Virus record (IMG/VR): IMGVR_UViG_2531839665_000007
Location: 1 to 22,029 of that record
From: a virus
Lineage: Duplodnaviria > Heunggongvirae > Uroviricota > Caudoviricetes
Strand: one strand, 5' to 3'
DNA length: 22,029 nt
The position numbers were made by a program, and so were the translations under genes. Shown here piece after piece: positions 6,811-8,145 of the stretch. The notes beneath the pieces were generated by a model. That model searched no databases, was not told the origin of the DNA, and worked only from the letters and a program-made list of their open reading frames with translations. Position 1 is the first letter of the stretch, and every line of letters begins with the position of its first letter.

Positions 6811-7409
6811 GCAACCTCACTTCTGCTGTTTCGCAGTTTTTTAAGTTTCTGTTGATACTCCGCCTTGATGGCCCTGCACTCTTCGACAGTCCAGCGATAG
6901 CGGTTATGGTTTGATTCGATTTCCTCTACTGCTTCCTGCCCGATGCGGCTAATCAGTTCGACGCGATACGGAACGAGATTTCCGCTTTTGTGCTGGTTGC
7001 ACACCACGCATTGCTTGTGAATATTGCGTTCATCAAATCGGAGTTGAGGTGCCGCAGCAGTTGTCCGGTAATGTCCGGCATCCCACTGAGCAGACGTGAG
7101 TGTTCCGCACGAGATACATGGTAAGTCGCGGTCTCTTTCTCTGATGAAGGCGTTTACGGCTTGTTGGGCTTGTTTAATCCAGTAACTGCGGGGCTTTAAG
7201 GCGAGTTTTCGAATCTTAAGTTTATCTTTCTGTTTCTGATCCTCTCGTCGTCGTTTCTTCTCTGCTGCTTTTTCCGCTTTTTCGCGTTCTTTACTTCGTC
7301 GTTCGAGTGCTATCTTGGTTCCACAAATCTCATTACACCAATATTGATTTTGATATTTTGGTATAAACCATTCATTGCAACATTTACATTTCCTTCGATA
7401 GATTCGCAT
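6807..7409 (-). CDS. ninG: NinG (Rap recombination protein) with a divergent N-terminus
   Basis: From ...[28 protein letters not shown]... onward it matches lambda NinG; the first ~30 residues ([29 protein letters not shown]) differ from lambda ([18 protein letters not shown]...) but keep the Cys pattern; start assigned to M at 7409. Confidence 0.8.
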
Positions 7410-7950
7410 AAGTGCTCCTTTCGTTGCCGGAAAAATCACCGTAATACTTATCTCGGGCTTCTTCAGCAACTAGTACCGCTAACTCCAGATCATCAAAGCA
7501 TCCGAAGTGTTTACTCTTGCCATGGAATCCTAGCCTAACATTCCATTTTTTCTGTCGTTTGTGCCAAGTAACCCCTCTGCAACCTGATTTGCTATTCTTT
7601 CGGATCCTTATATTTCTTGAATTTTCTATTGGCAGGCATTCTCTTAAATTTTCTGGCCTAGTGTCGGTCCTAATTCCATTAACGTGGTCAATTTGACCAG
7701 CAGGCCAACGATTATGAGTTATGTAAAAAACTAAGACGTGAGTTTTATATCTACGCCCATCTATCATGATCATTGAATAACCGTTGGAATCAAAAGTTCC
7801 AGCAACACTATTTAATGCTATCCTTCCCTGAGTGGGAACTTTCCATCTAAATACCCCGGTAGATTTATCGAAACTTAGTAACTCAAATATCCTTTTAACA
7901 GTTAAATCTTCTCTTTTACGGTTACATCGTCTTCGCGCTGGTTTAGCCAT
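7384..7950 (-). CDS. HNH homing endonuclease with C-terminal AP2 DNA-binding domain
   Basis: HNH motif ...[29 protein letters not shown] and AP2-type domain [52 protein letters not shown]; begins with MAKPARRRC, the lambda NinG N-terminus, preceded by GGAGGAAGAAGG. Confidence 0.75.
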
Positions 7951-8145
7951 CGCCTTCTTCCTCCGTAATGGTTTTCTGAATTTGGCCACCTGAACAGAGC
8001 TCACCAAAGCTATGGATGTCGGTATTTCCACAATACCAAGATGGCGAAAATAACTGCATGATAAGCCTCAGGGAAAAGGGAAGACACTACCCCCGATAAT
8101 TCAGAAACAAATCGAAATACATGAACTAAAGAAAAAAATCACAAC

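Follow-up and report, generated by a model that had tools for sequence, protein, structure and literature searches.

A start-capturing HNH-AP2 endonuclease cassette in the 5' end of lambdoid ninG, probably spread by intronless homing

How can a phage gene begin with the N-terminus of one protein and continue as another, apparently at no cost to either? The question is raised by a 22,029-nucleotide stretch of DNA (IMG/VR virus record IMGVR_UViG_2531839665_000007, the whole of which we call the window), where an open reading frame (ORF) starts as NinG of phage lambda and goes on as an HNH nuclease. The surrounding DNA is the nin-Q stretch of a lambdoid prophage, encoded on the minus strand, with Q at 5525-6148, a NinI-type phosphatase at 6145-6810, NinG at 6807-7409 and the nuclease ORF at 7384-7950. 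An initial annotation had proposed that a homing endonuclease gene invaded ninG and took over its translation start. Here we conclude, with a probability of roughly two in three, that the 5' end of ninG (rap), the lambdoid gene for a Holliday-junction nuclease, harbours a free-standing homing-endonuclease cassette that has spread by intronless homing. The protein family, the presence or absence of the gene at a single site, and an invariant cassette set in shuffled flanks make homing the most likely explanation.

To define what was inserted, we compared the locus base by base with lambdoid phages free of the homing endonuclease gene (HEG-free phages), comprising lambda, 434, 21, the HK-series and 80 IMG/VR loci. 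Their ninF-ninG junction is uninterrupted; matches to the window in lambda, and in hundreds of other lambdoid phages, cover the ninG body and ~45 nt at the ninF-ninG junction, with nothing between the two. On the left, identity to lambda covers the last 17 nt of ninF (7951-7967, minus strand), carrying the Shine-Dalgarno sequence GGAGG that was formerly ninG's and is now the nuclease's, and the first 29 nt of ninG (ATGGCTAAACCAGCGCGAAGACGATGTAA; 7922-7950, minus strand), that is, the ATG, codons 2-9 and two further nucleotides, which encode MAKPARRRC and are identical to lambda at 29 of 29 positions. The match to lambda and to loci with an intact ninF stops at ~7967, and in the window the sequence upstream of that point is unrelated and AT-rich. 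Among 59 related carrier loci, drawn from phage records, E. coli genomes and IMG/VR, the same 29-mer is found in 58, the lone exception being a single substitution (C9R), and in relatives with an intact ninF it also holds the ninF stop codon. The perfect match over 29 nt, together with that of the 17 nt upstream, implies shared DNA ancestry and excludes a chance likeness of peptides; the proposal that the ORF opens with the lambda NinG N-terminus and its ribosome-binding site is therefore correct at the level of DNA.

The nuclease ORF (7384-7950, minus strand) encodes 188 residues from the ATG at 7950. The longer interval first assigned to it, 7384-8031, is indeed the maximal ORF, counted from an in-frame GTG upstream, but the relevant start is the ATG. 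In E. coli JB2, whose prophage is 99.6% identical to the window, RefSeq calls the corresponding 567-nt gene "HNH endonuclease". Reading the sequence from the ninG ATG, we found no in-frame ATG, GTG or TTG before Met62, so the nuclease relies on the captured ninG start. A search for a promoter of its own returned nothing resembling a sigma-70 site, and only a weak terminator-like site at 8078-8094.

At the other end, identity to lambda resumes exactly at TGTGGAACC / TGTGGAACCAAG, with the TGT codon for lambda Cys32 (Cys29 in the window), and the lambda-like ninG body continues from this codon to the stop (6807-7325, minus strand) with 97-100% DNA identity to lambda-type alleles. Between the two junctions, nt 30-93 of lambda ninG (64 nt) have been exchanged for 596 nt, consisting of 512 nt of nuclease-specific DNA (7410-7921, minus strand; GC 39%), for which HEG-free phages have no counterpart, and an 84-nt replacement ninG 5' end of 28 codons (7326-7409, minus strand; GC 29%), hereafter the patch, with 56% DNA identity to lambda ninG nt 1-93. 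The left junction falls directly after the ATGTAA hexamer of the old 5' end; the same hexamer is found in the new one, where its TAA (7384-7386) serves as the nuclease stop. Two versions of the ninG 5' end thus flank the insert as imperfect direct repeats. The flanks have a GC content of 49-52% and the lambda equivalent of the patch one of 52%, so the low GC of both the nuclease part and the patch points to a foreign origin. In the E. coli prophage ETEC1718 the nuclease comes immediately after a complete lambda-like ninF and before the rebuilt ninG, which indicates that the insertion does not depend on the AT-rich gene that has taken the place of ninF in the window. In that setting the retained 29 nt preserve the ninF stop that overlaps the ninG start.

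By these comparisons the event is an insertion into ninG that captured its start and replaced its 5' end, much as the initial annotation had envisaged: the exchange of 64 for 596 nt is sharply bounded, and no alternative start precedes Met62. The alignment with HEG-free lambdoid phages, which had been suggested as a check, defines the insertion, and at no point did we see the gene as an ordinary ancestral neighbour; it was found solely at the ninG site. It is scarcely credible that the nuclease belonged to the ancestral arrangement and was lost by precise deletion from lambda-type phages, with no insertion into ninG having taken place. Presence and absence alone give no direction, and nothing specific speaks for such a loss, whereas carriers hold the ninG 5' end twice (29 lambda-type nt and a divergent full copy), the inserted DNA is foreign in base composition, and one near-identical cassette is shared by all carriers while HEG-free alleles are diverse and widespread. 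A deletion would, moreover, have to recreate a lambda-type 5' end differing from the patch at 44% of positions.

If the nuclease has taken the start of ninG, what has become of NinG? The gene at 6807-7409 is intact and encodes 200 residues, with a Pfam NinG match (PF05766, E-value 7.4e-84) spanning profile positions 5-192 of 193. Translation can begin at an ATG at 7409, preceded at a distance of 5 nt by a Shine-Dalgarno sequence, AAGGAG (7415-7420, minus strand), that lies within the nuclease ORF; the first 26 nt of the new ninG 5' end overlap the 3' end of the nuclease gene. The patch retains the Cys pattern and the WF and NQ.WC residues of the NinG N-terminus, and the ORF is intact, at 200 or 203 residues, in 52 of 56 carrier loci. 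With a start of its own, NinG has no need of splicing, and no Rfam family (ribozyme) was matched at the locus in a search for introns or other RNA families. These results bear on three earlier statements. That NinG resumes at its own Met 7409 with a divergent beginning and is lambda-like thereafter agrees with what we find, since the 28 new codons are 56% identical to lambda, and lambda identity sets in at Cys29. The explanation of that beginning by co-conversion was right in spirit, but the divergent part is an invariant 84-nt component of the cassette and not a variable tract; such tracts lie farther out, in ninF and in the ninG body. The doubt as to whether NinG is still translated efficiently is largely answered by the AAGGAG that precedes the new ATG by 5 nt and by the intact ORF in nearly all loci.

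The nin genes overlap and leave no intergenic space. A cassette that takes one start while supplying another thus offers a way into an overlapping operon that spares both neighbours. A hairpin pairing the new ninG Shine-Dalgarno sequence with sequence upstream was considered as a device for translational coupling and dropped, its z-score against shuffled sequence being -0.30. In one further locus (L024, at ~3626) an insertion-sequence-like end (TGAACCGCCCCGGGTTTCCTGGAGAG…) breaks ninG 14 nt beyond the patch.

Patch and nuclease go together. In effect, no patch without the nuclease was found by blastn against phage records, by protein searches with the NinG N-terminus or in complete E. coli genomes, where 538 of 5426 hold the patch and 537 the nuclease. 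A donor of the patch was equally elusive: sensitive blastn against 50,697 phage records returned carriers only, apart from ninG of Salmonella phage Emek, a 76% match that owes much to the conserved ninG body, and the first 40 NinG residues, used as a protein query, matched nothing but NinG fragments of E. coli carriers. No close relative of the nuclease came up when one genome per species was scanned.

We then asked what kind of protein the cassette encodes. The HNH domain is recognized directly, by Pfam HNH_3 (PF13392; 39.7 bits against a cut-off of 24.8, E-value 3.7e-10, residues 68-107) and by phrog_99, "HNH endonuclease" (E-value 4e-70). With the single sequence, Pfam AP2 stays below its cut-off (22.4 bits against 33.3, E-value 1.5e-4), and a sequence search of the PDB gives chance hits only. 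A family profile is needed here: built from 30 members and compared with solved structures, it matches I-HmuI (1U3E) with an E-value of 2e-8 and the plant AP2 protein WRI1 with one of 3e-8. An AlphaFold model computed with 36 relatives is confident overall (predicted local distance difference test, pLDDT, 90.3; predicted template modelling score 0.80), and its best Foldseek matches are I-HmuI, WRI1 and AtERF1. For the first of these, 1u3e_M, the probability is 1.00 and the alignment spans 104 columns, but the E-value of 8e-3 is modest and the template modelling (TM) score is 0.39-0.41; superposed on AtERF1 (1GCC), the model gives a root mean square deviation of 1.4 over 51 columns and a TM score of 0.66 relative to the target. 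Family profile and predicted structure together confirm the AP2 domain, so that the HNH-AP2 architecture originally read from the translation is borne out by Pfam HNH_3, the profile, and AlphaFold with Foldseek.

The predicted protein is composed of an I-HmuI-like beta domain (residues 16-67), the HNH motif (residues 68-113, with invariant D88, H89, N101 and N110) and the AP2 domain (residues 123-171). Its tails are modelled less well, with a mean pLDDT of ~70 for residues 1-10, 71 for 171-180 and 50 for 181-188, and these low-confidence ends roughly coincide with the parts encoded by DNA derived from, or overlapping, ninG. Residues D88, H89, N101, R103, N110 and N113 are invariant in the alignments of 30 and of 36 relatives, and all are kept in the window copy. 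This covers the Asp-His pair, the structural Asn and the metal-binding Asn that make up the beta-beta-alpha-metal motif of I-HmuI-like His-Me finger nucleases. The family is very large (96,955 cluster representatives at E-values up to 0.001), yet relatives outside the cassette reach at most 47% protein identity, and three databases contained nothing between 98% and 47%. In T5-like and Jersey-like phages the relatives are free-standing genes annotated as homing endonucleases, with unrelated genes on either side. Phage DUEC01, aligned by tblastn, seemed to show a native N-terminal extension corresponding to residues 2-15; this was rejected as a read-through artefact, because the annotated gene there starts later.

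Among the carriers, a single element recurs in many backgrounds. The gene is present or absent at one fixed site of homologous genomes and lies outside any intron or intein, the configuration expected of intronless homing. Across the 59 carrier loci the proteins are 98-99% identical and both junctions are the same throughout. In 55 aligned carriers, nucleotide diversity (pi) is 0.0043 in the nuclease-specific part and 0.0021 in the patch, and it climbs with distance from the cassette, from ~0.01 in the ninG body just beyond the patch to ~0.1 at 500 nt further, with a value of 0.047 for the ninG body overall. The flanks fall into at least 17 upstream and at least 11 downstream sequence clusters, occurring in 24 combinations. 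We also defined ninG 5' haplotypes from 81 HEG-free loci, across which this region is well conserved. The four haplotypes commonest there, over the first 70 nt of the ninG body, were each also seen joined to the cassette, which places exchanges within 8-32 nt of its right edge. On the left, ~45 nt of one ninF haplotype accompany the cassette before diversity appears.

The cassette is common in prophages of pathogenic E. coli. The 537 complete E. coli genomes with the nuclease belong mostly to enterohaemorrhagic serotypes (O157, O145, O111) and related pathotypes. The total is 570 copies across 538 genomes, which leaves 32 extra copies and means that some genomes hold two, and IMG genome 2690316149 has two cassette contigs (L010, L064) with different upstream contexts. 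The cassette can therefore occupy two co-resident prophages. It is also present in the Shiga toxin 1 (Stx1)-converting phages AU6Stx1 and SH2026Stx1, ~1.7 kb upstream of stx1, and, in O157:H7 strains EC4115 and F7349 (L147, L148), in a defective prophage remnant with neither replication nor early genes, in which an integrase, a few genes and a truncated IS30 transposase are followed directly by the nuclease. Overall, the sequence record fits a single insertion followed by repeated lateral spread.

Lateral spread in itself does not require the nuclease. One illegitimate insertion could have been carried along by ordinary lambdoid recombination (Red, NinB/Orf, Rap, RecA), with the enzyme uninvolved and perhaps decaying. 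We consider this unlikely, though it deserves serious weight: flanks are highly mosaic in all lambdoid phages sampled, the cassette of the O157:H7 remnants sits in a prophage that could not home as a phage, and some copies have a decayed look. One has a frameshift after residue 75 (L061), one has lost a catalytic Asn (N101S, L053), and the window copy itself has ACT (Thr) at codon 97 (7660-7662, minus strand), where the other 60 intact copies have AAT (Asn). Asn97 is nearly invariant across the wider family, within the motif D-N-R-x-x-N-L-R, and is also found in the 99.6% identical JB2 prophage; among the complete E. coli matches listed, none exceeds 99.9% identity over the region. N97T may be genuine and inactivating or may be an error of sequencing, and the window copy may be weakened by it.

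Three observations argue against an idle nuclease. Full-length copies are intact in 61 of 62 cases, and the 61 intact copies differ by 11 synonymous and 12 non-synonymous changes, giving a ratio of non-synonymous to synonymous polymorphism (pN/pS) of 0.29, which implies purifying selection, and recent selection, on the protein. The right-edge crossovers, within 8-32 nt and onto every major ninG haplotype, exceed the expectation for a homologous arm of 500 nt. Finally, the cassette is far less diverse than sequence lying 100-500 nt away. Given the invariant catalytic residues, the pN/pS, the intact ORFs and the confident model, the nuclease is likely to be functional.

We therefore favour intronless homing, and the steps we propose are these. 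As the sequence comparison shows, a cassette of two parts sits in a resident ninG: the 512 nt for an I-HmuI-like HNH nuclease with a C-terminal AP2 domain, devoid of a start codon, and the 84-nt AT-rich substitute for the first ninG codons, with its own AAGGAG upstream. The in-frame join after nt 29 leaves the ninF stop overlapping the ninG start untouched; the nuclease is read from the ninG ribosome-binding site and ATG as a fusion with nine NinG residues, and NinG is rebuilt from the new start within the nuclease 3' end. When a phage with the cassette and a lambdoid genome lacking it replicate in one cell, through co-infection or induction of a polylysogen, the nuclease would nick or cut the lambda-type ninG 5' region. 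The 64 replaced nt are the obvious candidate target, as they belong to a conserved part of ninG. Repair from the cassette-bearing copy would then copy in the cassette with a short, variable flank, and in this way one original insertion could have spread over many lambdoid backgrounds, Stx phages included. The patch, 44% different from lambda, would probably make the carrier immune to its own enzyme. Carriers retain lambda-type nt 1-29 and everything from nt 94 onward, and a recognition site lying wholly inside those segments would be cut in the carrier itself.

Several points weigh against this account. Homing and cleavage are both deduced from sequence patterns, and the population pattern (a monomorphic cassette, a gradient of diversity and crossovers near the edge) is consistent with biased inheritance and also with ordinary recombination. 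The mosaicism of lambdoid phages is notorious, and they bring recombinases of their own, so a low-diversity module with shuffled flanks could arise without nuclease-driven conversion. The tighter linkage on the left (~45 nt, one ninF haplotype) fits hitchhiking from any cause. I-HmuI, the closest solved relative, is a nicking enzyme, and a double-strand break is accordingly not assured. Base composition is what suggests that the patch was transferred together with the nuclease, and the search for its donor came back empty. Lastly, Thr97 in the window, N101S in L053 and the frameshift in L061 mean that some copies may be inactive.

Selection on the protein could also reflect a service to the phage. 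A domesticated nuclease might attack rival lambdoid genomes or satellites, or promote the recombination or amplification of genes nearby, with homing no more than a by-product. The purifying selection and the broad retention in prophages of pathogenic E. coli would agree with such a role, as would the phage benefits ascribed to phage homing endonucleases in PMC13096335 and the occurrence of nuclease genes at genetic-exchange boundaries (PMC10448857). Nevertheless, no feature of the locus indicates a specific beneficial role, the protein is typical of a very large selfish family, and most lambda-type phages do without the nuclease, all of which makes domestication improbable.

The neighbourhood of the cassette has further peculiarities. 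Between ninE and the nuclease, ninF is replaced by an AT-rich (~30-39% GC) gene of 590 codons on the plus strand (8526-10298). It has no Pfam match, its sole match being phrog_9230 (function not assigned), and it is a "hypothetical protein" in the Stx1 phage AU6Stx1; it looks like a moron acquired independently. An ORF of 38 codons (7943-8059, minus strand) is formed by the right end of the AT-rich insert and the last six ninF-like codons (…EEEGDG, as against EEEDDG in lambda). It matches no family and ends on a TAA that overlaps the nuclease ATG, as ninF ends in lambda; it may be a mere by-product, or it could keep its translation coupled to the start of the nuclease. A perfect hexanucleotide array, (AAATAG) x 10.8 (8146-8210), is found in the interval between the divergent 590-codon gene and the nuclease. 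Related loci have 3 to 13 perfect repeats, which makes it a variable-number repeat, and it could influence expression of the adjacent gene. On the far side of ninG, ninH is absent from the window prophage, the ninG stop overlapping the start of the NinI-type phosphatase (ATGA, 6807-6810); in lambda and AU6Stx1, ninH follows ninG.

What does the element add to the known repertoire? Nearly all work on homing endonucleases concerns lytic phages, and the ninG cassette is widespread in temperate lambdoid prophages, reaching ~10% of complete E. coli genomes and including Stx1 phages. The nuclease gene is routinely annotated and the HNH-AP2 architecture is known; the structural twist is the captured start combined with a replacement 5' end. 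We found no paper on this ninG element or on its replacement 5' end. An active enzyme would provide a defined and tractable source of recombination beside Q-stx, and a simple lambda-based homing system for temperate phages, whereas an inactive one would leave merely a well-annotated passenger gene. A bolder and rather doubtful proposal is that the cassette actively drives gene conversion among lambdoid prophages sharing a Shiga-toxin-producing E. coli cell, breaking ninG ~1-2 kb upstream of Q/stx and dragging alleles of the late-regulatory and toxin region from one prophage to another, with the 5' end as a portable immunity patch. Were this true, it would supply a specific cause of ninG-Q-stx mosaicism, and the portable patch would let the element sit in an operon of overlapping genes that has no intergenic space.

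The closest parallels in mode of spread are the free-standing endonucleases that T-even phages encode, in whose intronless homing a cut in the allele without the gene is repaired from the carrier and the flanks are co-converted (PMC2988022). Like the genes for SegF, SegG and MobE, the ninG nuclease gene lies outside introns and inteins, is present or absent at a fixed site beside a conserved gene and is inherited together with its flank. For those enzymes cleavage and biased inheritance have been demonstrated, while the ninG cassette is known from its sequence; they have their own starts and lie between genes of lytic phages, whereas the ninG nuclease is fused to its neighbour's start, brings a substitute 5' end and inhabits temperate lambdoid prophages. 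Insertion inside a conserved coding sequence with host function kept has precedents in mobE in nrdA of Aeh1 and mobA in gene 60 of T4 (PMC2988022). In those cases the split host gene yields two polypeptides, which reassemble; in ninG, nine codons stay upstream and the whole protein is made from the replacement 5' end.

For the capture of a start, a direct precedent is offered by epsilon34, a lambdoid, P22-like phage in which the N-terminus of a resident gene has been joined in frame to an HNH endonuclease (PMC2629481). That fusion lies at the eaE locus of the early left operon, its HNH is said to resemble enzymes of Lactobacillus phages, and no replacement 5' end is reported (PMC2629481). In ShiLan (PMC11855218), too, an HNH homing element is embedded in a host coding sequence, that of a phage methylase, and translation of the nuclease is puzzling. 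The ShiLan element is translated, in frame, as a segment of the methylase and has its nuclease in a different frame, whereas in ninG the nuclease takes the host start and the host gene restarts downstream. As to the protein, HNH-AP2 enzymes are a recognised class of homing endonucleases (PMC10448857, citing earlier work), and the ninG nuclease shares domain order and fold with I-HmuI (1U3E) and this class: an N-terminal beta domain, an I-HmuI-like HNH motif and then AP2. I-HmuI itself is intron-encoded, and its match covers the N-terminal beta domain and the HNH motif but not AP2.

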